Positions 1 to 9,675 of a DNA stretch of 9,675 nucleotides are shown piece by piece. The stretch is from a virus (Duplodnaviria; Heunggongvirae; Uroviricota; Caudoviricetes): IMG/VR virus record IMGVR_UViG_2698536471_000020, positions 1 through 9,675 of that record. One strand, given 5' to 3'. Each line of letters begins with the position of its first letter. Positions within the stretch are counted from its first letter, which is position 1. Below the pieces are notes generated by a model that made no database searches, was not told the origin of the DNA, and saw only the letters and a program-made list of their open reading frames with translations. The position numbers and the translations under genes were made by a program.

Positions 1-38
1 TGTGCCCCCATCGCGCTGGTGAAGAAAACAAGCTCAGA

Positions 39-253
39 TTTTTTGTAAAGAATCTGTCACGCTAAAAGATGTCGAACAAAAATTAACCACAACCATCATC
101 TTTTTTGCATCAACCACATTAAAAACAACAGGTTACACACATGATGATGATGACGATAAAATCACAAAAATGCGCTTTTTTCCGCGCCGCCCGCCCCGTG
201 TTCATACCCACCCCACCAGGAGGACCCGCAAAAAAGGCGGCTGGTGCCGCCTT
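39..253. repeat. Intergenic module copy A (homologous to 2575-2790); includes the capsid-gene terminator
   Basis: Co-linear shared blocks with copy B: ttttttgtaaa, tcgaaca vs tcgacac, triplet run (ATG)4 at 141-152 vs GTG/ATG run at 2675-2689, aaaaatgcgc, tttttccgcgcc, ccgccccgtg, ccaccaggag, A-tract plus GC hairpin. Weaker similarity may extend to position 1 (window edge). Confidence 0.6.
230..253 (-). terminator. Rho-independent terminator after the protease-capsid gene
   Basis: Minus strand reads AA GGCGGC acca GCCGCC TTTTTT G (stems at 236-241 and 246-251), a few nt after the stop codon at 258-260. Confidence 0.7.
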
Positions 254-257
254 GTTG

Positions 258-2147
258 TCAGAGTGAATCTGTCCCGCCTGATTTGACCATACCGCGATAA
301 TCCAGAGCTGCCACACCTGCATCAATACGGACTTTCCAGGCCACGCCGTCAACGATAAAACCTTCCTGCTGTTCAAGGTAAGGCTCGTCATTGCCATCAA
401 GATAAGCCACCTCGATTGTGTCCGTTCCCTGTGCGGAAAGCATGTACCATTGTTTTTCGCTGATATCATCAAGGCGGGGATCGACGATGATATCAAGTAG
501 CTTGTGGTACGGGTTAAAGATCCCGCTGTTTTTATCAGCCCCGAAAGGTGCGGTTGAGTTAATCATCTGCAACGCGCGATCTTCCAGTGCTGCCGGAACT
601 AAAAGGAATTTAGGCGCAATATTCAGCACTTCGCCATTTTTGTCCTTCTGTGTGCGCATCAGGTGACGTGCTGCACTAAGTCCCGGTGTTGTCAGTCCTG
701 CTTCAATCAGGTTGCTGTGTTTTTTGTCAAACAGCGTTATTCCGTCAGAAAGTTTTACGTTGCCTGTAAGCACCAGATTAACCAGATTTCCCACCGTTCT
801 TGATGCTGCACGGCCCATAGCCATTGGCACCGTTGATAACTGATCAAGGTCATCATTGATTATCGCCTGGCGGGTAATGCTGAAAATATTCCCGTAAGTA
901 GCCAGCGCGATGGGTTCACCGCGATCGCTGGTGGTGATGTATTTATATTCTGCCCCTTCCGGAACTTTGTTTAACGTTGAGAAGCCATTCATACCAACGC
1001 GGCGGGCTTCCCGGAAGTTTGAAAGGGAACCTTTTTTCGTCCACTGGCGGAATGTTTCGCCGCTGTGCTCCCAGCCTGCAAGCACTGATTTTTCAGCGCC
1101 ACCAGCAAGGATATCGGTAAAATCGCTGCTGCTGTGGGTGAATGCCGCGTTTACTATCTGCGAGCGTGTGCTGTAGCTGCCCGTGCTTATACCACGATGG
1201 GTTAATGATGCCTGTGCCATATCGAAAAGGCTCATCATGGCGTAAGGATTACCGCGTTCGGCCCGTTCGTGACCAAGACGCGCATTAAGCCCCTGACGCA
1301 TGGCATCGCCAGTTATATTGCCGTTATCCGTGTACGCGTAGTAAAGATTTGCGGGGGTGGTTTTGTTTGTTGGCGTTGATTCTTTACCCATAGCGAGTAA
1401 AAGGCGTTCGCGTGCATTCTCAACGCTACATTCTGAATCCGCAAGACAACTTATAGCCAGGTCGTTATATCTTCCGTTGAAGGTGCCAAACAATTCACGG
1501 ATGCCGTTAAGTCGTTCCTGTTCGCCACTGCCAGTTTTCTGGCTGATCATGCTTTTAATTTTTTCCGGCATATTTGAAAAATCTCCGATTCGTTTTGATT
1601 CAATTCGGGCCATTGCTGTAATCGCGGGTATAACCTCATCTGCGAAACCGTTAGCCTTACACTCATTGCCATCCATCCAGGTTTCCGCCTCCATCATGGA
1701 GGTGATTTCCTGTTTGCTCCTGCCCGTTCTTCCGGCATAGGTTTCTGCCATCGTGTCGCCCAGCTTGTCCATCAGATCAGCAAAGCGGCGAACGTCGCCC
1801 GACACTCCGGCAGTAACACCACGGGGGGCATGTATCATCATCATCGCGTTTTCAGGCATAACGATATGATCTCCACACATGGCAATAAACGAGGCCATAG
1901 AAGCCGCCATGCCTTCAATGTGTACGATTTTTTTTGCCGGATGATTTTTCAGAGCGTTATAGATAGCCAGCCCTTCAAAGATGTCGCCACCAGGTGAATG
2001 GATGCGAAGATGGATTTCAGACGCATTACCACACGCGTTGATCTCGTCAGTAAGTGCCGATGCTTTTACACCGTACCCGCCGATCTCGTCATAAATGCGC
2101 ACATAGACAACATCTGCCATAGCCTTAATGGAAAACCATGTTTTCAT
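258..2147 (-). CDS. Prohead protease (ClpP/S14-like) fused to a scaffold-like linker and a major capsid protein domain (HK97-type, inferred)
   Basis: 629-aa ORF. N-terminal ~190 aa carries ClpP-type signatures (GMAASMAS serine motif, MMMIHAPRG histidine motif). The C-terminal ~300 aa reads as a capsid-like domain by composition and position, not by a specific motif. Start overlaps the upstream small ORF stop (ATGA). Confidence 0.75.
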   Translation of the reverse strand: MKTWFSIKAMADVVYVRIYDEIGGYGVKASALTDEINACGNASEIHLRIHSPGGDIFEGLAIYNALKNHPAKKIVHIEGMAASMASFIAMCGDHIVMPENAMMMIHAPRGVTAGVSGDVRRFADLMDKLGDTMAETYAGRTGRSKQEITSMMEAETWMDGNECKANGFADEVIPAITAMARIESKRIGDFSNMPEKIKSMISQKTGSGEQERLNGIRELFGTFNGRYNDLAISCLADSECSVENARERLLLAMGKESTPTNKTTPANLYYAYTDNGNITGDAMRQGLNARLGHERAERGNPYAMMSLFDMAQASLTHRGISTGSYSTRSQIVNAAFTHSSSDFTDILAGGAEKSVLAGWEHSGETFRQWTKKGSLSNFREARRVGMNGFSTLNKVPEGAEYKYITTSDRGEPIALATYGNIFSITRQAIINDDLDQLSTVPMAMGRAASRTVGNLVNLVLTGNVKLSDGITLFDKKHSNLIEAGLTTPGLSAARHLMRTQKDKNGEVLNIAPKFLLVPAALEDRALQMINSTAPFGADKNSGIFNPYHKLLDIIVDPRLDDISEKQWYMLSAQGTDTIEVAYLDGNDEPYLEQQEGFIVDGVAWKVRIDAGVAALDYRGMVKSGGTDSL

Positions 2148-2371
2148 AGCCAGACCCCTAACGTTGCCCTGTACCAGTATTCAACCGCGCTGCGTGTGAT
2201 TTGTCCTTTCGTGGGTACTGGCATACCCGGGTGATTATCTTTGATGAACTGCTGATAGCGTTCGATCTTCTCCATAGTTCCGGCGTCTATGTGTACCGTG
2301 GCACTTTTATCCGGCTTTCTGGTGTTGTTCTCTGGCATAAATCCGCCTCCGTTTTGATTAACGGGCATCAT
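2144..2371 (-). CDS. Small hypothetical protein, translationally coupled to the protease-capsid gene (more likely start at 2338, giving 64 aa)
   Basis: ORF stop overlaps capsid ATG (ATGA at 2144-2147). The internal ATG at 2336-2338 is preceded by GGAGG at 7-nt spacing, whereas the ATG at 2371 has no clear SD. Function unknown. Confidence 0.45.
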   Translation of the reverse strand: MMPVNQNGGGFMPENNTRKPDKSATVHIDAGTMEKIERYQQFIKDNHPGMPVPTKGQITRSAVEYWYRATLGVWL

Positions 2372-2533
2372 TATTGATCGATAAAAGCAATAGATAAATC
2401 ATTTTCTACCTAAAAATCAGATTATGATTTTTCTGATTATTCTCAGAGAGGCAAAGTTATTGACGCATTTTTGCCATTGAAGCAGTATTAAGACTCGTCA
2501 TCCTGGCGATAAAAACTCCTTTGTCGTGTAAAA

Positions 2534-2569
2534 GCGCCTCCGGTAACAGCAATCGGGGGCGCTTTTTTT
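2534..2569. terminator. Terminator-like GC hairpin with flanking A/T runs, readable on both strands
   Basis: Plus strand: GCGCCTCCG (2534-2542), 11-nt loop, CGGGGGCGC (2554-2562), then T7 (2563-2569). Preceded by AAAA, so the minus strand also reads hairpin plus TTTT with one C/A mismatch. Confidence 0.5.
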
Positions 2570-2574
2570 GCGCC

Positions 2575-2790
2575 TGTTTTTTGTAAATGTTTTCGGGAAC
2601 GTTCCGGTGATGAACAAAAAACAACCTGATTCGACACTAAAAATTTTTATTTCTCAACATATCAATAACTTATAGTGGTGGTGATGGTGCCATAAAAATC
2701 AAAAAATGCGCCTTTTTCCGCGCCCCTCCGCCCCGTGGACAGGCCACCCCCACCAGGAGTACCTACAAAAAAGCCGGATTGCTCCGGCTT
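2575..2790. repeat. Intergenic module copy B (homologous to 39-253); includes the ssb-operon terminator
   Basis: Same block order as copy A; contains triplet run GTGGTGGTGATGGTG (2675-2689), conserved G-rich block on the minus strand (CTCCTGGTGGGGGTGG...CACGGGGCGG...GCGCGGAAAAAGGCGCATTTTTTG) and terminator hairpin 2773-2788. Confidence 0.6.
2767..2790 (-). terminator. Rho-independent terminator after the SSB-like gene
   Basis: Minus strand reads AA GCCGGA gcaa TCCGGC TTTTTT G; SSB-like stop is at 2805-2807. Confidence 0.7.
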
Positions 2791-2804
2791 CTGTCACTCG
2801 TTGC

Positions 2805-3227
2805 TTAAAACGGTATGTTATCCCCGTACGGATCATCGTTACCCGCCTGTTGTTTTGCCCTGTTCAGTGCGTCAGTAGCCTGCCCCTGCTGGCCTTTTTT
2901 GCCGCCCGGTCGCGCCGTTCTCGCACTGATTACGCTGTCTGCGATAACCTGCCAGCCCTGCCGCGTTTCGCCGTTCTGGCCTGTCCACTGGCTTACCTGC
3001 ATGTTACCCGCCACGCTCACCAGCTCGCCTTTGCGGTGTTTTGCCAGTGCGTCGGCCTGTCTGCCAAACGCCAGGACGGATAACCACATCGTAGCCGTTC
3101 CGTCATCTGCCTGGCTGCACGGCAGGGGGACAGCCATACTCGCCATCGTCATTTGTGTGCCCTTGCTGGTGGTCTTTAACTGTGGGTCAGCCACCAGCCG
3201 CCCGTAAGCCGCTATCTGTGCTGTCAT
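2805..3227 (-). CDS. ssb: Single-stranded DNA-binding protein (SSB-like, OB fold with acidic C-terminal tail)
   Basis: 140-aa ORF. The pattern GRLVADPQLK...WLSVLAFGRQADALAKHRKGELVSVAGNMQVSQWTGQNGETRQGWQVIADSV parallels the E. coli SSB OB-fold core; Gly/Gln-rich linker; C-terminus DDPYGDNIPF resembles the canonical SSB DDDIPF tip. ATG overlaps the upstream ORF stop (ATGA). Confidence 0.75.
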   Translation of the reverse strand: MTAQIAAYGRLVADPQLKTTSKGTQMTMASMAVPLPCSQADDGTATMWLSVLAFGRQADALAKHRKGELVSVAGNMQVSQWTGQNGETRQGWQVIADSVISARTARPGGKKGQQGQATDALNRAKQQAGNDDPYGDNIPF

Positions 3228-3502
3228 GATTCCACCTCTACGTTTTTAACGTTGATGGTTGTCACCTGTTCAGCTTCCGCAATCTCCCGCTCTGTCAGCG
3301 TGGCAAAATTTGCCGCCGTCGTGGTCATGAATGCGCTTATCAGGTCGGGATGTTCCTTCGCGTATCCTTCCCCCGCGTGGCGGTCTATCGTTCTGATTGC
3401 CACCTTTAAAGCGTGCTCTGTCATGTCTAACGCGCGATATTTCGGTTCTGTTCTGTCTCTGTGTTTTTTGAGTGATTTATTAAATTTCCCTGAAGTGTGC
3501 AT
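3224..3502 (-). CDS. Hypothetical protein (92 aa from the ATG at 3502), translationally coupled to ssb-like
   Basis: The track ORF extends to 3553, but the ATG at 3500-3502 is preceded by GAGGGGG and the longer form would run into the iteron array. Function unknown. Confidence 0.45.
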   Translation of the reverse strand: MHTSGKFNKSLKKHRDRTEPKYRALDMTEHALKVAIRTIDRHAGEGYAKEHPDLISAFMTTTAANFATLTEREIAEAEQVTTINVKNVEVES

Positions 3503-3550
3503 ATTTATTTTTACCCCCTCGTTTAAAAAGTTTTGAGTTGTGCCTCCCCC

Positions 3551-3775
3551 CATCTACCCATCTACCCGAATGCTCATCATGTCAGTAATGGCGCGGCTTT
3601 CAGCGGGTAGATAGCTTTTTTGGCTCCTCTACCTGCCGTCTACCCTGCTACCTGAAACTGATAAAATCAGGTAGAAGAGGTAGAGAGCTTTTATTAGCCT
3701 TCTACCTGGCCCTCTACCCACTTATCATGTTGAATAATATACGTTTATTTCATTCAGGTAGATGGGGTAGAGGGC
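3551..3775. repeat. Iteron array / putative replication origin
   Basis: At least 11 copies of the hexamer GGTAGA/TCTACC in alternating orientation, in pairs: TCTACC at 3553, 3561, 3628, 3639, 3701, 3713; GGTAGA at 3606, 3670, 3679, 3757, 3766; plus near-copy GCTACC at 3647. Longer unit GGTAGAKRGCTTTT three times; AT-rich spacers. Lies directly 3' of the primase-helicase gene. Confidence 0.65.
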
Positions 3776-3787
3776 TTTTACAAAAAA

Positions 3788-5542
3788 TTATAAAAACGCG
3801 TCGCAATCGTCTGTTGTAATTGCGTTGGTCTGCGTTACTCCCTTAACTTTTCGCGTAATATATTCATGCCCGTAAACTTTCGCCGCTGGCTTCATGGCCT
3901 TGCTGAACTCAGCCACGTTTAGCGGTTTGCTCCTGCCTGCGTATGCCATAAACGCCAGATAGACGCGGTAAAGGCTGTTCCTGGTCGTGTACTTCACTGA
4001 ATCACCACCGCCACCCATCATCAGGCCGCGCGCTTCCTCCAGAAAATTCAGGAACTGGCAAAACTCAATAACCGGATCCGTCTGTTGCTTTATTGCCAGT
4101 GCTTCATCACCGTCACGCTGTTCCAGTAGTAAAGCCCTCGCCTTTTCAGGGTCGGTAAAGTTCGCCAGCAAGCGGCGGATAATAACGGGGATTTCAGCCG
4201 CAATTTTTTCCGGTAGTTCCCTGTCTTTTTCGGCCTCACTAACAATATTGTCGAAACGGAAAATCACGCGACGACGTGCCACACCTCCGGCCCGTTCGGT
4301 GAATATCATCGGGTTATTATTGGTCGCCAGCACCACCGCCCTGATTACCGCCGTGAAACGCTTTTCATATTTCGGGTTTATTTCCACGGGGTCGCCGCCC
4401 GTGATTTTCTTGATGCCCGTTCCTTCGCCTGTATATTTCGGCTGGTCTGCTAGGACGATAAGACGACTCCCGACAACCTGCGCACGTCCACCAGCATCAT
4501 CAAGCGATGTCATTTCAGCGCTTACCGTGTTCTGTTTCCCTGCCAGAAGGCTGGCTATGTGTGTGAATGTACTTTTACCGCTCCCGCCGTCTCCGGTGGC
4601 CTCAATAAACATCTGCCAGTCGTACCGGTTCGCCATAATCATGTACAGCGCGGCACATATACGCATCATCTTGCGCGGGTCTTTTCCGGCTGCGTGCTCA
4701 AGCCATTTATGAAAGTTTGGCGCGTTGTCGCGGATATTCTCCCCTGGTGCTGGTGGCGTGTACTCAATGCCGTTGTGCGTGGTGATCCAGTTCTCCGGCG
4801 TGTGCGGGGAAAATTCCCCCGTTTTCAGGTCAAGCGCACCATTGGCGAACGGCAGCAAATCGCCGGACGGCTCGCCCATTGGTTCGGCAATAACTTTTAA
4901 CGCTTCCACGGCGTTATTGATTACGCGCTTGCTGAAAGTGGCCCTGTGCTCTGAATAGATCGCCACCATTTCGCGGCTAAGTTCCATTGTGCTGACCGGA
5001 CACCATACCCCGCCGCGCCATACGTGAACAATTTCACTTTCAGGATGTACGCAAACGCCATCAAAGCGATCGGCAAGCAGCTGCGCGCGCTCACTGTCCG
5101 CCATCTGCGAAAGTTGCGCCTTTTGCTTTACCGGAAGCTCAATGACCAGACCATCAGAAAGATTCTGGCGTTCACGGGCCAGGTATTCGCGCCAGTTCTG
5201 CACCTCCTTGCCGTGCATACCCTCAGGATAAAAATTTGCATCCTGTACACCAGCCGCCGCCAGCTTTTGACCAATCGCCTTTATCATTACTGGTGCAAGA
5301 TATCCGGCCCTGAATATGCGCACGGATTTTCTGCCTTCCGGCACAATTTGCAGCTTATCCAGTTCTGATAACTGCTGCTCCCCAAGCCACACAGGAGGCT
5401 CATTATCTCCGGCCATACGCGCGTCATGTTCCTGCCATTGTTTTGCGTGTGACCAGGCATCACTACCCGCAAAAATAATGACTTCTGTTTCTTTGTGTTT
5501 TATGCCGCGTGACTGCTGTTTTACGTTCGGTGCCAGTTTCAT
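3788..5542 (-). CDS. Replication protein: primase / SF3-type helicase (P4 alpha C-terminal / D5-like family)
   Basis: 584-aa ORF with Walker A P-loop GDGGSGKST and downstream hydrophobic stretch LIVLAD (Walker B-like); size and position (after alpA and small genes, before origin iterons) as for satellite pri/rep genes. ATG overlaps the upstream ORF stop (ATGA at 5539-5542). Confidence 0.8.
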   Translation of the reverse strand: MKLAPNVKQQSRGIKHKETEVIIFAGSDAWSHAKQWQEHDARMAGDNEPPVWLGEQQLSELDKLQIVPEGRKSVRIFRAGYLAPVMIKAIGQKLAAAGVQDANFYPEGMHGKEVQNWREYLARERQNLSDGLVIELPVKQKAQLSQMADSERAQLLADRFDGVCVHPESEIVHVWRGGVWCPVSTMELSREMVAIYSEHRATFSKRVINNAVEALKVIAEPMGEPSGDLLPFANGALDLKTGEFSPHTPENWITTHNGIEYTPPAPGENIRDNAPNFHKWLEHAAGKDPRKMMRICAALYMIMANRYDWQMFIEATGDGGSGKSTFTHIASLLAGKQNTVSAEMTSLDDAGGRAQVVGSRLIVLADQPKYTGEGTGIKKITGGDPVEINPKYEKRFTAVIRAVVLATNNNPMIFTERAGGVARRRVIFRFDNIVSEAEKDRELPEKIAAEIPVIIRRLLANFTDPEKARALLLEQRDGDEALAIKQQTDPVIEFCQFLNFLEEARGLMMGGGGDSVKYTTRNSLYRVYLAFMAYAGRSKPLNVAEFSKAMKPAAKVYGHEYITRKVKGVTQTNAITTDDCDAFL

Positions 5543-5838
5543 TTTTTACCCCTGAATACGTTAAGCATCTTTTTTATTTCCTGAATATTGGCGCGTGCTT
5601 TCTCCCTGCTGGTGGGCTTGCTGCGTTGCGCTGCCTGCACCAGAGAAAAATCACGGTCGAACTGATAAACGGGCATCACGCAATCATATTCGTAACCTTC
5701 ACGGAGGTAAGTTACGCACCGTCCCGCCACGCCCTTAATCATTACCGTGCCGCCGTACTGGTCGCGGTAAATATCACCGCGCGTAAATTTAGGGTGAGTG
5801 TTGCCACTGGCAGTTAAGCCAGAATATTTAAGTTTCAT
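5539..5838 (-). CDS. Hypothetical protein (99 aa), translationally coupled to the primase gene
   Basis: ORF with GGAGA Shine-Dalgarno about 9-10 nt upstream of the ATG; ATGA overlap with primase start. No motif recognised. Confidence 0.55.
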   Translation of the reverse strand: MKLKYSGLTASGNTHPKFTRGDIYRDQYGGTVMIKGVAGRCVTYLREGYEYDCVMPVYQFDRDFSLVQAAQRSKPTSREKARANIQEIKKMLNVFRGKK

Positions 5839-5843
5839 TATTT

Positions 5844-6074
5844 TTATTCTCCGGTGTGGGGCGCGTTATTATTTTCGTGAATTGCCATTGCCTTATCCAG
5901 TTCATCAATAACAGGCGATAGTAATGTCTGAATGGCTGCAAACATTAATACACCTGATTCCTCACCACCTTCCGGCACTTCAATTAATTTAATTAACAAC
6001 GCATTCATTTCGCGTGCTTTAATTAATGCGTTTTCAGAGTGGATTAATACTTCAAAAGGGATTTTATGCATCAC
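5844..6074 (-). CDS. Hypothetical small acidic protein (76 aa), in an AT-rich segment
   Basis: ORF preceded by AAGGGAG; predicted helical, many Glu/Asp. Local sequence is visibly more AT-rich than flanking genes (GC not computed). Confidence 0.45.
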   Translation of the reverse strand: MMHKIPFEVLIHSENALIKAREMNALLIKLIEVPEGGEESGVLMFAAIQTLLSPVIDELDKAMAIHENNNAPHTGE

Positions 6075-6294
6075 AAATTTTCTCCCTTATTCTTTTAATG
6101 TCCTCATTAAGGATGTCTGTAACTTTTATCAGCGAGTTTTTGGCAATTATTTTTATTGTTTTAAGTTTTCTTTTGTCGTGCTCCGACTGTGATTTTCTCT
6201 CCATAATCTCCACCATGTGGGTAACATCAACGAGCGCACGTATCAGTATTTGCATTGCTTCTTCTGCTGCGTCCGGTGTGGTTTTATTGTGCAT
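6064..6294 (-). CDS. Hypothetical small protein (76 aa), in an AT-rich segment; overlaps the downstream ORF by 11 nt
   Basis: ORF preceded by AGGGGA; Lys/Glu-rich helical composition. No motif recognised. Confidence 0.45.
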   Translation of the reverse strand: MHNKTTPDAAEEAMQILIRALVDVTHMVEIMERKSQSEHDKRKLKTIKIIAKNSLIKVTDILNEDIKRIREKICDA

Positions 6295-6496
6295 AAAGCA
6301 TCCCCTGAATATTCGTGTTAATCATTCCGGCACGTTTTGTGATTTCCTGTAATGATTCCCTTGTGGCGACAATTGCTTCATCTGGTAAGTGGTAATTACA
6401 CACCACGCGACCTTTATCCACATTGACCAGTAGCTGCCCTGTGAATTTCTCACGAAACTGAATGCGGTTAAGGTCAGTAAGTGACAGATTAATCAT
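6284..6496 (-). CDS. Hypothetical protein (70 aa from the ATG at 6496), start overlaps the icd-like stop
   Basis: Strong SD AGGAGG 6 nt upstream of the ATG at 6494-6496; ATGATTAA start/stop overlap with the icd-like gene. The track ORF start at 6538 lies inside icd-like and lacks an SD. Confidence 0.5.
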   Translation of the reverse strand: MINLSLTDLNRIQFREKFTGQLLVNVDKGRVVCNYHLPDEAIVATRESLQEITKRAGMINTNIQGMLYAQ

Positions 6497-6677
6497 GGCG
6501 CACCTCCTGACGAATACGGGCGGCAAATACAGCAACACAACCGGACGGGCAACGGTTACGCGCTTCGCGTTCCGTCCAGGCGGTTACGTGGATGATTTGA
6601 TGTTCTGACGCGCCAAAGATGATAAAGCGCCAGAGAAAGGCGGTTTGAGAATGTACAAGGGTAGGGATAGTAGCCAT
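6489..6677 (-). CDS. Icd-like small protein (host cell division inhibitor Icd-like family, 62 aa)
   Basis: It is the C-terminal tail of the 416-codon track ORF, but a strong SD (GAGGAGG) sits 8 nt upstream of the internal ATG at 6675-6677. Sequence MATIPTLVHSQTAFLWRFIIFGASEHQIIHVTAWTEREARNRCPSGCVAVFAARIRQEVRHD fits the remembered Icd-like pattern (F-W-RF ... ERxAR ... FAARxP/Q-E); family assignment is from memory, not a search. Confidence 0.6.
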   Translation of the reverse strand: MATIPTLVHSQTAFLWRFIIFGASEHQIIHVTAWTEREARNRCPSGCVAVFAARIRQEVRHD

Positions 6678-6839
6678 GTTGGCAGCCTCCTCAGTGTGGT
6701 TAAGATAACCGCCACCGGAAACGCCAATTTCGCTGGTGGCGGACTGTACAGGGTTGGCGTAACCGGACACTGAAGAAACCGGCGCGGATTGCTCCGCCCC
6801 CGTACAGCCCACCATTGATAAGGTGTGACTATGCGGCAC

Positions 6840-6861
6840 AAAAAAACACGCGGGGCGCGTG
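6840..6861 (-). terminator. Rho-independent terminator inside the leader upstream of icd-like
   Basis: Minus strand reads CACGCG ccc CGCGTG followed by TTTTTTT (plus-strand A-run 6840-6846, stems 6847-6852 and 6856-6861). Confidence 0.7.
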
Positions 6862-7103
6862 TTATGCGCTTCAGTTTTGCCCAGGACGCCAATCCCGGCA
6901 CCCGTTTTATGAGGTGCGCGGGAATCATAGCCATTTTTGCTGGTGGCGATCAACTGGTTTTTTACACCCGCTTTATTCAGGTTGTGTGAGTCCCGCCCTT
7001 GCGGGTGTGTGGTATGATTTCTCATAGCTACCTCGATACTTTCGCTATCGTTGGTGGTCAGAGGCTGCGAAAGGACGGCAATCCTTTTCAGCCTCGTTTG
7101 CAT

Positions 7104-7207
7104 TGAGTGATAAACACTCAGCTGGATTCCAGTATAATCACTAAGTGGAATCCACTTCAAGCGTTTTGTTTTGGTCTTTTTCGTGTATACTGGATTCCAG
7201 TAATCAC
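7104..7207. promoter_or_regulatory. Divergent promoter/operator region with three TGGAWTCCA palindromes
   Basis: Palindromes CTGGATTCCAG (7122-7132), AAGTGGAATCCACTT (7143-7157), CTGGATTCCAG (7190-7200); extra inverted repeat TGAGTG-ataaa-CACTCA (7104-7120). Minus-strand promoter TTGAAG (7160-7155), 18-nt spacer, TATACT (7136-7131) overlaps the plus-strand TATAAT (7133-7138). Direct repeat CTGGATTCCAGTA(T)AATCAC at 7122-7142 and 7190-7207. Confidence 0.6.
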
Positions 7208-7221
7208 AAAGGGAACCAGAA

Positions 7222-7401
7222 ATGGAAAGAGACCATATCAATAACAAATCACAGAAATTACAGGCTCGCGCCCCGCATGAAGTTGTTGAGGCTATGGAGC
7301 AAGTAAAAGAAACAGGCGAGAGCACTGCGCAATTTATCGTTACAGCCATGCGAGGCGAGATCAAACGCCGCCAGCGCCGTAAGGCCAAAGAATCAGAATA
7401 A
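7222..7401 (+). CDS. Small ribbon-helix-helix-like DNA-binding protein (59 aa; below the ORF-track size cut-off)
   Basis: ATG at 7222 with AGGGA about 8 nt upstream, TAA at 7399-7401. Translation MERDHINNKSQKLQARAPHEVVEAMEQVKETGESTAQFIVTAMRGEIKRRQRRKAKESE has an RHH-like layout (basic strand RAPHEVV, two short helices, basic tail). Sits immediately downstream of the operator palindromes. Confidence 0.45.
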   Translation: MERDHINNKSQKLQARAPHEVVEAMEQVKETGESTAQFIVTAMRGEIKRRQRRKAKESE

Positions 7402-7458
7402 TCACTATCAGCGCCGTGGTGTGAGGTACTACGGCGCATTGCTTTACAGGGCAGTACC

Positions 7459-7686
7459 ATGACTAACAACACACTATCACCAATACAAGACACGCAAACG
7501 CAAGATGATGAAATCATCCGGCAAAGGCAGTCAGAAGCCTGCGCCAGAGTTGAGGAAGAACTAACCAGAACAAAAATACCACCACCAGCGCCGCGCTTAA
7601 TGCCACCAGAAAAATTTGCCCTTGAAGATTTTGTCGAGAAATACCCACGGCGGTTAAAAGCCACTAAAAACCGACCGCCTGGCTGA
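7459..7686 (+). CDS. Hypothetical protein (75 aa), possibly co-transcribed with the RHH-like gene
   Basis: ORF with protein-like charged composition but a weak SD. A hairpin GCGCCGT (7411-7417) / ACGGCGC (7431-7437) lies between it and the RHH gene. Convergent with alpA. Confidence 0.3.
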   Translation: MTNNTLSPIQDTQTQDDEIIRQRQSEACARVEEELTRTKIPPPAPRLMPPEKFALEDFVEKYPRRLKATKNRPPG

Positions 7687-7832
7687 TAGCCTTGTCCACC
7701 AGCTACGGCGGTGCTAAGATTGAAAGCTGCATAAGTCATGAAATAAACTCCTTAGCGGTGCATACGCGCCGCTTCTTTCTTCACGAACAACTACAAACAA
7801 AAACACGGACGGAATTTAAAGAATGAATATTC

Positions 7833-8027
7833 TTAATTGACGCGTTCGCGGTTTTTGACCCACGCCACAACCTCAGACTTAACCCAGCCAACAGAACGAC
7901 CGCCGAGACTGATACGGGAAGGGAAGCGGCCCTGCTTTTCCATCTCGTAACGAGTTGTGCGGCAAACGCCTGTTAGCTCTCTGCATTCTTTTTCGCGGAT
8001 TACACGATCTTCATTTATTTCGCGCAT
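7833..8027 (-). CDS. alpA: AlpA-family transcriptional regulator / excisionase-like protein
   Basis: 64-aa ORF; HTH followed by GGRSVGWVKSEVVAWV matches the AlpA (Phage_AlpA) pattern; located directly downstream of the integrase on the same strand. Confidence 0.8.
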   Translation of the reverse strand: MREINEDRVIREKECRELTGVCRTTRYEMEKQGRFPSRISLGGRSVGWVKSEVVAWVKNRERVN

Positions 8028-8360
8028 AAAAAGCCCTACATAAAATTACGTATAGAAATTTTTGTTTCGCTGTGGATATACGGAAAGAGATTACTTCTTA
8101 GCTTTTCTTACCTCTTAAATTGAAGGCGTAACCTTGCCAAAAGCTATGCTCGCCAAGGTTCGCAAGGGTTCGTTGTTGTTCATAAAATCGTTGCACACCA
8201 GGAAAGACAATTCAACATTAAAATTCCCTCTACAGTGAGGGATAATTAAAAAAACAAATTAAAACAGTCACATAAAAGCATGCACTTTGAAATAAAGGAA
8301 AATATTAAAACTCAAGTAGACAATCGCTGTTTTCAAATTTTTTCAATACTTGACACATAT

Positions 8361-8393
8361 AAATCGTCGATATTTGCCGATATTCGACGATTT
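8361..8393. promoter_or_regulatory. Inverted repeat in the int-alpA intergenic region (candidate regulator binding site)
   Basis: Perfect 10-bp arms AAATCGTCGA (8361-8370) and TCGACGATTT (8384-8393), extending to about 13-bp arms with one indel; consensus TTGACA at 8350-8355; region 8040-8436 is AT-rich. Confidence 0.4.
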
Positions 8394-8436
8394 ATTTTAG
8401 AGGGCCATTTTTCGCAAGAAAAACAGCCGTAATTTG

Positions 8437-9675
8437 TCAAGAATTTTGAGAGTAAATTCGCGGGGTCATAACAACGATTTTTTCATCATTGTTCTGGAGA
8501 AGCTCGAGACGCTCAACCCATAGATTAAGAGCGTCACGTTTTGCATCGAGATAACGGGAGTGATTATAGACTCGTTGCACTCCTGGCAACTGGTGCGCGG
8601 TTAGCTGCTCCACTACATGAGGATCCACGCCTAAATCGTTCAGCATCGTTGTAAACGTGTGCCGGATGTCGTGCAACGTCCAGGGGGCTTGATTAATGCG
8701 TCTGTGTGCCGTTCTTCCGTACTCTGATACAGATGATTGCCCTTTCAGTTCTCCGAGCAATAAGCCTGTATGCCTGTTCTGCTCAACCAGCTGCGTGACG
8801 AACGGCAAGATCGCTTCCGGTATAGGCCGGAATATTGCTACCTTCGTTTTGCTGTGCTCCTTCGGAACGGTCCAGAGCATTTCTTTAAAATCCCATTCCT
8901 GGACCTCAGAGCGTCTTAGCTCAGTGGTACGGCATCCGAAGACAATCAGGAGGCGAATCAGGGCGCTGTAGTACGGTGGGTAAATTTTTTCATCCAGGGC
9001 GCGGAGTAATTCCCCAAGCTCCTTGTTTGTTAGTACGCGCTGGCTTATTTCTGCTTTTTTCCCAACATCACCGACAACCATATCATCAAGAACGTTGCTG
9101 ATTGCGTAGCGTCGTTTGCGGCAGTACTTAAGCGCCTGCTTGCATACCTGCAACAAAAAACCTGCTGATACCGGATTACGCTTAGCAAGCTGATCAAAAC
9201 AGGTCAGCCAGTGGCGTAGCTCGCATTTTTCCAGCGGCATAGCACCAATCTGGCTGATTATGTGTGTATTGATCCGGCTCTTCAGAGATTCGTAGTCTGT
9301 GCGCTTTTCCTTCGCGTACGATTCAAGCCAGTAAGTGAGCGCTTCCTTAACCGTAACAGGTGATAACGCTTCCTGTACGGTGTGATTAAGCTCATGGCGT
9401 GGATTTTTCCCCTCAGCAAGCCAGGCGCGACACTGCGCCGCTTTTTCCCTGGCTGCTTTCAGGCTCAAATCAGGATAATTTCCCAGCCTCAGACGTTCAG
9501 GGGATACCTTCCTGCCTGTTCCGGCCCTGTAAGTGAAATACCAGGTTAACAGGCCATTGGTTGAATGCCTTACGCTAAGGTTGCCACCATCATTAAAAAA
9601 GGTGTTTTTTGTGGTTGGTGATCCGCTTAATTTTCGTAAAAGAGTGTCGCTAAGTCTATGAATTGCCCTGCTCAT
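8437..9675 (-). CDS. int: Tyrosine-type site-specific integrase (P4-type, arm-binding N-terminal domain)
   Basis: 412-aa ORF with catalytic-domain signatures in the translation: GCRTTELRRSE (box I Arg), LHDIRHTFTT (H-x-x-R), VYNHSRYLD (catalytic Tyr region). The ATG is the last 3 nt of the window, so the true start and the att site cannot be verified. Confidence 0.85.
   Translation of the reverse strand: MSRAIHRLSDTLLRKLSGSPTTKNTFFNDGGNLSVRHSTNGLLTWYFTYRAGTGRKVSPERLRLGNYPDLSLKAAREKAAQCRAWLAEGKNPRHELNHTVQEALSPVTVKEALTYWLESYAKEKRTDYESLKSRINTHIISQIGAMPLEKCELRHWLTCFDQLAKRNPVSAGFLLQVCKQALKYCRKRRYAISNVLDDMVVGDVGKKAEISQRVLTNKELGELLRALDEKIYPPYYSALIRLLIVFGCRTTELRRSEVQEWDFKEMLWTVPKEHSKTKVAIFRPIPEAILPFVTQLVEQNRHTGLLLGELKGQSSVSEYGRTAHRRINQAPWTLHDIRHTFTTMLNDLGVDPHVVEQLTAHQLPGVQRVYNHSRYLDAKRDALNLWVERLELLQNNDEKIVVMTPRIYSQNS

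Follow-up and report, generated by a model that had tools for sequence, protein, structure and literature searches.

What is the function of the dense array of short inverted repeats that lies directly behind the pri gene of the viral record IMGVR_UViG_2698536471_000020, of which a stretch of 9,675 nucleotides (positions 1 to 9,675, here called the window) was analyzed? The window is a phage-inducible chromosomal island (PICI) of the Escherichia coli type, with int, alpA, a DUF4222 gene, pri, ssb and a capsid-protease fusion, and its pri gene (also called pri-rep; 3788..5542, minus strand) encodes Pri, a protein of 584 amino acids that is the proposed initiator recognizing the repeats. An earlier note on this DNA had taken the array for an iteron origin of the kind found in P4 and PICI replicons. 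We reach the same answer: the segment 3553-3771 is very probably the vegetative replication origin (ori) of the island, and the array is an allele of an origin already described and tested in the island EcCICFT073, and hence already known. The array, its conservation and orthology, the domain homologies of Pri and the covariation of the repeats with the initiator were established in this analysis; the requirement for pri and for the segment is that of the orthologue.

Between 3553 and 3771 there are 11 exact copies of the hexamer GGTAGA/TCTACC (starting at 3553, 3561, 3606, 3628, 3639, 3670, 3679, 3701, 3713, 3757 and 3766) and one degenerate copy, in agreement with the earlier count of at least 11 copies in about 220 bp. 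GGTAGA occurs 12 times on both strands of the whole window, and the sole copy outside the array is at 2405-2410; dinucleotide shuffles of the window gave a mean of 2.1 copies and a maximum of 7, and 12 copies were reached in none of 200. The composition of the region 3551-3787 predicts 0.11 hexamers as against the 11 found, 20,000 mononucleotide shuffles never gave more than three, and in other 237-bp stretches of the window the commonest hexamer reaches a count of six at most (median 3). The extended consensus of the iteron is R-GGTAGA-n-G-G-S. Three copies (3606, 3679 and 3766) lie in the longer unit GGTAGAKRGCTTTT, the number of such units that had been given before. On the plus strand the orientations from left to right are - - + - - + + - - + +, which confirms the alternating, oppositely oriented pairs of the earlier description, with the addition of one single copy.

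Read in the direction of pri, the array begins 16 bp beyond the stop codon (3788-3790), immediately 3' of the gene, as had been stated. Iteron 1 (3766..3771, plus strand; TCTACC in the sense of pri), the nearest to pri, lies within the unit GGTAGAGGGCTTTT and is followed at a distance of 9 bp by iteron 2 (3757..3762, plus strand). These two plus-strand copies (3757-3771) and the two inverted copies at 3701-3718, namely iteron 3 (3713..3718) and iteron 4 (3701..3706), both on the minus strand, flank a 38-bp AT-rich spacer (gap 1, 3719..3756), which is the proposed site of DNA unwinding. Iteron 5 (3679..3684), within the unit GGTAGAGAGCTTTT, and iteron 6 (3670..3675), an exact hexamer, are again on the plus strand. 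The 25-bp middle spacer comes next and contains the degenerate copy GCTACC (3647..3652, minus strand), which has one mismatch and is not conserved in relatives. Beyond it are iteron 7 (3639..3644) and iteron 8 (3628..3633), both on the minus strand, and iteron 9 (3606..3611, plus strand), which is the single copy and belongs to the unit GGTAGATAGCTTTT. A 39-bp spacer (gap 2, 3567..3605), holding the sequence CAGTAATGGCGCGGCTTTCAG, separates iteron 9 from the last inverted pair, iteron 10 (3561..3566) and iteron 11 (3553..3558), both on the minus strand, the latter being the furthest from pri. About 50 bp separate the distal end of the array from the next gene, whose conserved ATG is at 3500-3502.

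The AT-rich spacers of the earlier note were found as well: the AT content is 76% in gap 1 overall, with 80-85% per 20-bp window, and 65-70% at 3650-3669. There are thus two gaps of 38 and 39 bp between inverted pairs, the first of them AT-rich (76%) and the second with 46% AT. With a period of 10.7 bp, the iterons are in phase (R=0.82; matched by 25 of 5,000 random placements), and it follows that they lie on the same face of the helix. Similar periods were obtained for the origin of CFT073 (10.8; 172 of 5,000 random placements as good) and for the TGTTCACC-type origin described below (10.6; two of 5,000). Single-strand folding of the whole array is strong (z=-4.9), only because the array is built of inverted repeats, and the AT-rich gap folded no better than shuffles. 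An Rfam search gave only a sub-threshold match to a plant microRNA (26 bits; cut-off, 46.5), which was discarded, and searches with the DnaA-box and IHF consensus sequences found no match inside the array (3551-3787).

If the hexamers are functional sites, they should be retained in relatives, and the earlier note had named their absence from related elements as the finding that would speak against an origin. They are present in every relative examined, so the proposal stands on this point. Of 5,426 complete E. coli genomes, 564 carry the 300-bp origin region (72-99% identity), and ten copies spanning this range were aligned (alignment A2). Nine hexamers are invariant in all ten, including iterons 1, 2, 7, 8, 9, 10 and 11. 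Pairwise identity among the ten copies is 90% in the hexamer columns and 64% in the other intergenic columns, and eleven blocks of six columns placed at random were never as well conserved in 20,000 trials; the hexamers are under purifying selection. In IMG/VR and in a set of genomes with one per species, a search found 78 loci (77 from IMG/VR and one from Shigella) with a Pri at least 88% identical to that of the window, and in all 78 the array is present within 330 bp after the stop codon, with 6-11 exact hexamers, mostly 9-11. The few loci with 6-7 exact hexamers retain the pentamer GTAGA at all eleven places, and this pentamer is the only invariant core across more distant relatives. No copy of the origin was found in phage records, and only two plasmid records have one. 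Some genomes carry up to four origins of the GGTAGA type.

The proposed initiator, Pri, consists of a TOPRIM-like N-terminal region (residues 1-140), a D5_N domain (153-282), a superfamily 3 (SF3) helicase P-loop region (DUF5906, 316-417) and a C-terminal origin-binding region (488-576), and it matches the Pfam families D5_N, DUF5906 and Pox_D5 as well as TIGR01613. It is 40% identical to the P4 alpha protein over alpha residues 324-756, which comprise the helicase and origin-binding parts. Residues 488-576 match PDB 1KA8 (E=8e-6), an entry deposited as 'putative P4-specific DNA primase', which is the origin-binding domain of P4 alpha as crystallized. A further match is that of residues 188-432 to a 'DNA primase' chain of PDB 7OLA (E=3e-15). 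The latter is the structure of PriRep5 of SaPI5, a Staphylococcus aureus pathogenicity island (SaPI), according to Qiao et al. 2022 (PMC9371898). On the strength of sequence homology, then, Pri would combine a helicase with an origin-binding domain of the winged-helix kind at its C-terminus, as is expected of the initiator at a PICI origin. The label of primase-helicase given to the gene in the earlier note held for the helicase (D5_N, DUF5906) and found no support in sequence motifs for the primase: the N-terminal domain has no recognizable primase sequence motifs, no region of Pri can be aligned to the primase domain of P4 alpha, and a profile comparison of the N-terminal domain with the TOPRIM region of alpha was not significant.

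Comparison among islands indicates which part of Pri would recognize the repeats. The island EcCIRM13514 (E. coli, yicC-dinD) encodes a Pri 49% identical to that of the window and has the same array layout, built from TGTTCACC, which is the type 1 iteron of P4. Homologues of Pri in Serratia and Morganella (52-53% identical) are associated with arrays of the TGAACA type, and EcCI042, whose initiator is a helicase of the RepA family, has AAGTGAGG repeats. The C-terminal domains of EcCIRM13514, Serratia and P4 alpha (Morganella was left out of this comparison) are 44-51% identical to one another and 31% to that of the window, and within the GGTAGA group this domain is at least 94% identical even where the identity of the N-terminal domain falls to 67%. 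The iteron sequence thus covaries with the C-terminal origin-binding domain of Pri across PICIs and P4, which supports the prediction that this domain reads the iterons. The two types also occur together in one genome: E. coli O145:H28 RM13514 has two PICIs, one with a GGTAGA origin at cspD-clpS (L011 7570-7788) and one with a P4-type TGTTCACC origin at yicC-dinD (L012 8055-8300).

The same comparison bears on the idea that the repeats are a packaging signal (a cos or pac site with binding sites for the terminase small subunit) or arm-type sites of the integrase. Short repeated protein-binding sites do occur in cosB and in the arms of attP, and P4 has annotated 12-bp arm repeats close to its crr region. 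However, the GGTAGA array is the same in islands at cspD-clpS, ycfD-phoQ and yejM, and its sequence tracks the C-terminal domain of Pri across islands with differing integrases and attachment sites, and the idea therefore does not fit. Besides, the array contains no cosN of the lambda type, the only near match being at chance level and inside pri (4389-4400), and it lies 4.6 kb from int (8437-9675), with no attachment-site core located either near it or elsewhere in the window. The probability of this explanation is practically negligible.

Experimental evidence comes from EcCICFT073, whose Pri-Rep is identical to the Pri of the window at 575 of 584 residues (98%). Fillol-Salom et al. 2018 (ISME J, PMC6092414) cloned the pri gene and ori region of CFT073 in a temperature-sensitive plasmid, which formed colonies at the restrictive temperature; the delta-pri plasmid gave none, and the delta-ori plasmid gave significantly fewer. 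We mapped the published primers onto the CFT073 sequence (L010): the last L010 position is 7308 in the pri-ori insert and 7002 in the delta-ori insert, so that the delta-ori deletion covers L010 ~7003-7308, equivalent to ~3479-3782 of the window. The segment removed therefore comprises all eleven hexamers and nothing else of note, and the two pri-proximal iterons are contained verbatim in one of the published deletion primers. In the CFT073 region after pri (L010 6997-7284) there are 11 GGTAGA hexamers at positions equivalent to those of the window. The two elements hence have the same initiator, the same iteron in eleven copies and the same location directly after the pri stop codon, and they also share the flanking invariant blocks and both gaps of 38-40 bp. 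Given the PICI context, the orthology of the array with the tested CFT073 segment and the identity of Pri, the assignment made in the earlier note is upheld. Since the counterpart of the array in strain CFT073 has already been tested as an origin, the assignment is correct but ordinary.

The two islands differ in the order of the central copies, which in the sense of pri is aabbaabbabb in the window and aabaaabbabb in CFT073, in their attachment sites, and in the capsid genes, CFT073 having a separate capsid protein and decoration protein in place of the ClpP/capsid fusion of the window. The rearrangement is a difference between subtypes (bbaa at 3670-3718 of the window, baaa at L010 7068-7119 in the CFT073 type), in which one iteron changes its place and orientation and the total of 11 is kept. 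Iteron 3 is present in origins of the window type and the O157 type and is shifted by one column in the CFT073 type, which at the place of iteron 4 has a T-tract followed by an extra copy in the opposite orientation.

The location of the array within a string of genes of one direction also suggests another role, in which the repeats would be mainly operator sites where Pri or another DNA-binding protein controls read-through from pri into the 92-amino-acid gene, ssb and the capsid gene. Neither a terminator nor a promoter consensus was found in scans of 3350-3950, which include the interval between pri and the next gene, and the array is immediately followed by a nearly invariant leader, where a protein roadblock would affect downstream expression. 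This role, however, leaves unexplained the loss of plasmid maintenance upon deletion of the orthologous segment, the conserved AT-rich gap between inverted pairs, and the recurrence of the same layout in the P4 ori, which is outside any operon. As the principal function, control of read-through is extremely improbable; as a secondary effect of the binding of an initiator to the origin, it may exist.

The leader in question (3503..3545, minus strand) contains the ribosome-binding site of the 92-amino-acid gene; it reads CACAACTCAAAACTTTTTAAACGAGGGGGTAAAAATAAAT in the sense of pri and is followed by the ATG. It forms the distal boundary of the origin and lay within the published delta-ori deletion. 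The conservation of these ~40 nt (AAAACTTTTTAAACGAGGGGGTAAAAATAAAT in the sense of pri, then ATG) is far above that of the origin spacers, and parts of the leader recur after the arrays of Serratia and Morganella. The gene itself is at 3224..3502 on the minus strand, with its start at the ATG 3500-3502 according to the alignment, in which this codon is conserved, and to the annotation of L001 and other relatives; the start at 3553 given by the finder of open reading frames (ORFs) is not the true one.

The homologous array of the satellite phage P4, which comes directly after alpha on its 3' side, is the crr region (4291-4590), a cis-acting helper of replication, and the annotated rep_origin is at 9086-9809. 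The array in the window might accordingly be a crr-like cis-acting replication enhancer, which Pri would bind and connect by a loop with a second site, in the way that P4 alpha connects crr with ori. The layouts lend some substance to this: in the sense of pri, the window array consists of aa, a 38-bp AT-rich gap, bbaa, a 25-bp spacer, bba, a 39-bp gap and bb, and the P4 crr unit (plus strand) consists of aa, a 35-bp gap with ~70% AT, and bba, so that the proximal half of the window array is patterned as a crr unit, with two iterons, an AT-rich gap of 35-38 bp and inverted iterons. However, the distal half is patterned as the P4 ori (bbba, a 35-bp gap with 83% AT, and bb), so both modules appear side by side. 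In addition, the window has only one other GGTAGA (2405-2410), the complete CFT073 and 2011C-4251 elements have one each elsewhere, and no second cluster with the GTAGA core was found in the window or in the complete relatives. Moreover, the CFT073 clone that replicated held only pri and the orthologous segment (PMC6092414). A function as an enhancer of a distant origin is therefore very unlikely.

The array looks like a crr-like, pri-proximal half and an ori-like, distal half placed side by side, a likeness to P4 that is one of layout rather than of demonstrated common descent. Both systems have short iterons in both orientations, gaps of 35-40 bp and an array directly 3' of the initiator gene, and the helicase and origin-binding parts of alpha are homologous to those of Pri. 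AT-rich gaps of 35-40 bp equivalent to gap 1 are also present in EcCICFT073, EcCIRM13514, the P4 ori and the P4 crr. The differences are that the P4 iteron is TGTTCACC and not GGTAGA (the P4 iteron is used by another E. coli PICI, the yicC-dinD island EcCIRM13514), that the modules of P4 are 4.5 kb apart and those of the window form a single contiguous cluster, and that P4 has a terminator between alpha and crr, whereas none was found in the window.

An AT-rich second gap is common to the TGTTCACC-type PICI and P4; in the GGTAGA type an invariant block takes its place. This block (3584-3604) is a non-iteron sequence of 21 bp, CAGTAATGGCGCGGCTTTCAG. All origins of the GGTAGA type have it, down to the most diverged ones, which keep its core, CCGCGyCATTACTG, and origins of the TGTTCACC type lack it. 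The block has no predicted hairpin, and it folded no better than shuffles. A scan of IMG/VR for the 15-mer GCCGCGCCATTACTG yielded 120 loci; at 105 of these there are no iterons in the vicinity, and the matches seem to be fortuitous or to fall in coding sequence. The P4 ori has CATTACTG between iterons at the place equivalent to that of the block, possibly by coincidence.

A more far-reaching interpretation can be built on these features, though we regard it as speculative and rather doubtful. In it, the origin of Gram-negative PICIs would be a compact fusion of the crr-like and ori-like elements of P4, and the GGTAGA lineage would have exchanged the AT-rich gap in the ori half for the 21-bp block at 3584-3604, which would act as a separate site (for instance for priming or the start of synthesis, or for a host factor). 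The part of Pri labeled 'primase' would be a TOPRIM-like module lacking the canonical catalytic motifs and common to island initiators of the SF3 and RepA types, and priming would for this reason be due to the host DnaG and not to Pri.

Leaving this interpretation aside, the assignment of 3553-3771 as the origin is consistent with what is known of the islands of Staphylococcus aureus. The SaPI origin has been defined (PMC9371898) by 6-12 iterons of five or six nucleotides that come directly after rep, with a central AT-rich region flanked on either side by two or more iterons, those of one side pointing opposite to those of the other. The window has a site 3' of pri with 11 hexamers and an AT-rich gap flanked by inverted pairs. 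In SaPIs, moreover, an SF3 helicase with a C-terminal winged-helix domain loads itself and reads the iterons (PMC9371898), and the homology of Pri suggests the same for the window. The two differ in that their iteron sequences are unrelated and in that the Gram-negative islands are transcribed unidirectionally (PMC6092414). Furthermore, the window has two large gaps and an invariant block that is not AT-rich, in contrast to the one central AT-rich region of SaPIs. Origins of iteron plasmids (the pSC101, R6K, RK2 and P1 type) likewise have repeated initiator-binding sites beside an AT-rich stretch. Those plasmids have direct repeats of 17-22 bp, DnaA boxes and often IHF sites, and they need the host DnaB and DnaC. 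The repeats of the window, however, are cores of 5-6 bp in inverted pairs, without DnaA or IHF consensus sequences, and the island has its own helicase.

The mechanism that we propose for this origin is modeled in part on P4 alpha. It is based also on the SaPI Reps (PMC9371898). The binding of Pri to the iterons is inferred from the homology of its C-terminal domain to that of P4 alpha and from the covariation described above, and the site of melting, the loading and oligomeric state of the hexamers and the source of the primer are likewise proposals. After induction, Pri would be made from the gene immediately upstream of the array, and its C-terminal winged-helix domain (residues ~488-576) would recognize the core of 5-6 bp, GTAGA/GGTAGA. 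Binding would be cooperative, on one face of the helix and on both sides of the 38-bp AT-rich gap, and because the eleven sites lie on one face and inverted pairs flank the gap, the bound subunits of Pri would be brought together. SF3 helicase hexamers might then assemble on the DNA without a separate loader, the duplex would melt in the AT-rich gap (3719-3756), and the single strands would be coated by the SSB of the island, encoded two genes downstream. Priming would be carried out by Pri or by the host DnaG, and the host polymerase would complete replication.

Several points weigh against this assignment. The published accounts considered report no binding of Pri to iterons for any GGTAGA-type element, and delta-ori lowered the number of colonies, abolition not being reported (PMC6092414). 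The origin of the window is ~75% identical to the tested CFT073 origin, and the experiments are those of the orthologue. The homologous array directly 3' of alpha in P4 is crr, and the annotated origin of P4 is 4.5 kb away from it. Finally, gap 2 is not AT-rich, and it holds an invariant block that the model of the origin does not explain.

The conceptual gain from the locus is small, as the same initiator and iteron had already been tied to replication in EcCICFT073; a preprint on capsid-forming PICIs (cf-PICIs) and the paper on EcCIMP1 contain no statement on origins. The practical value is that the origin of this island is now marked with its iteron core, positions, phasing and gaps and with the boundaries of the tested deletion, for use in annotation and in satellite-based vectors. 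The comparative gain lies in three observations: the iteron core and copy number are kept amid spacers that have drifted to 64% identity and central copies that have changed their arrangement, in PICIs and P4 alike the identity of the iteron follows the initiator's C-terminal domain, and the layout equals the ori and crr of P4 side by side.

All of the long ORFs in the window are on the minus strand. Besides pri and the 92-amino-acid gene, they encode a tyrosine integrase (int, 8437-9675), AlpA (alpA, 7833-8027), an Ash/Icd-like protein in a single ORF of 416 amino acids (6489-7739), a DUF4222 protein identified by Pfam (5539-5838), an SSB protein with a Pfam match (ssb, 2805-3227), which comes after the 92-amino-acid gene, and a fusion of 629 amino acids (258-2147) that joins a ClpP-like prohead protease to a major capsid protein. 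The fusion is the only morphogenesis gene in the window, and the island is therefore not a full capsid-forming PICI. The closest genomic match is E. coli 2011C-4251 (87% covered, 94% identical), in which the island resides between clpS and cspD, and cspD-clpS is listed as a PICI attachment site of E. coli in Table S1 of Fillol-Salom et al. 2018 (PMC6092414). The features of a resident PICI are thus all found: int, alpA, a unidirectional gene order and a known PICI attachment site.

Two other regions of the window deserve mention. In the 416-amino-acid ORF at 6489-7739, an Ash domain at residues 271-364 is joined to an Icd-like motif of cell-division inhibitors at 368-411, and it is here that the window diverges from its closest genomic relative, which has several small separate genes in this place. 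The most AT-rich stretch of the window (~5900-6200; 32-39% GC) overlaps small ORFs upstream of the DUF4222 gene and contains AATTAA six times in ~260 bp.
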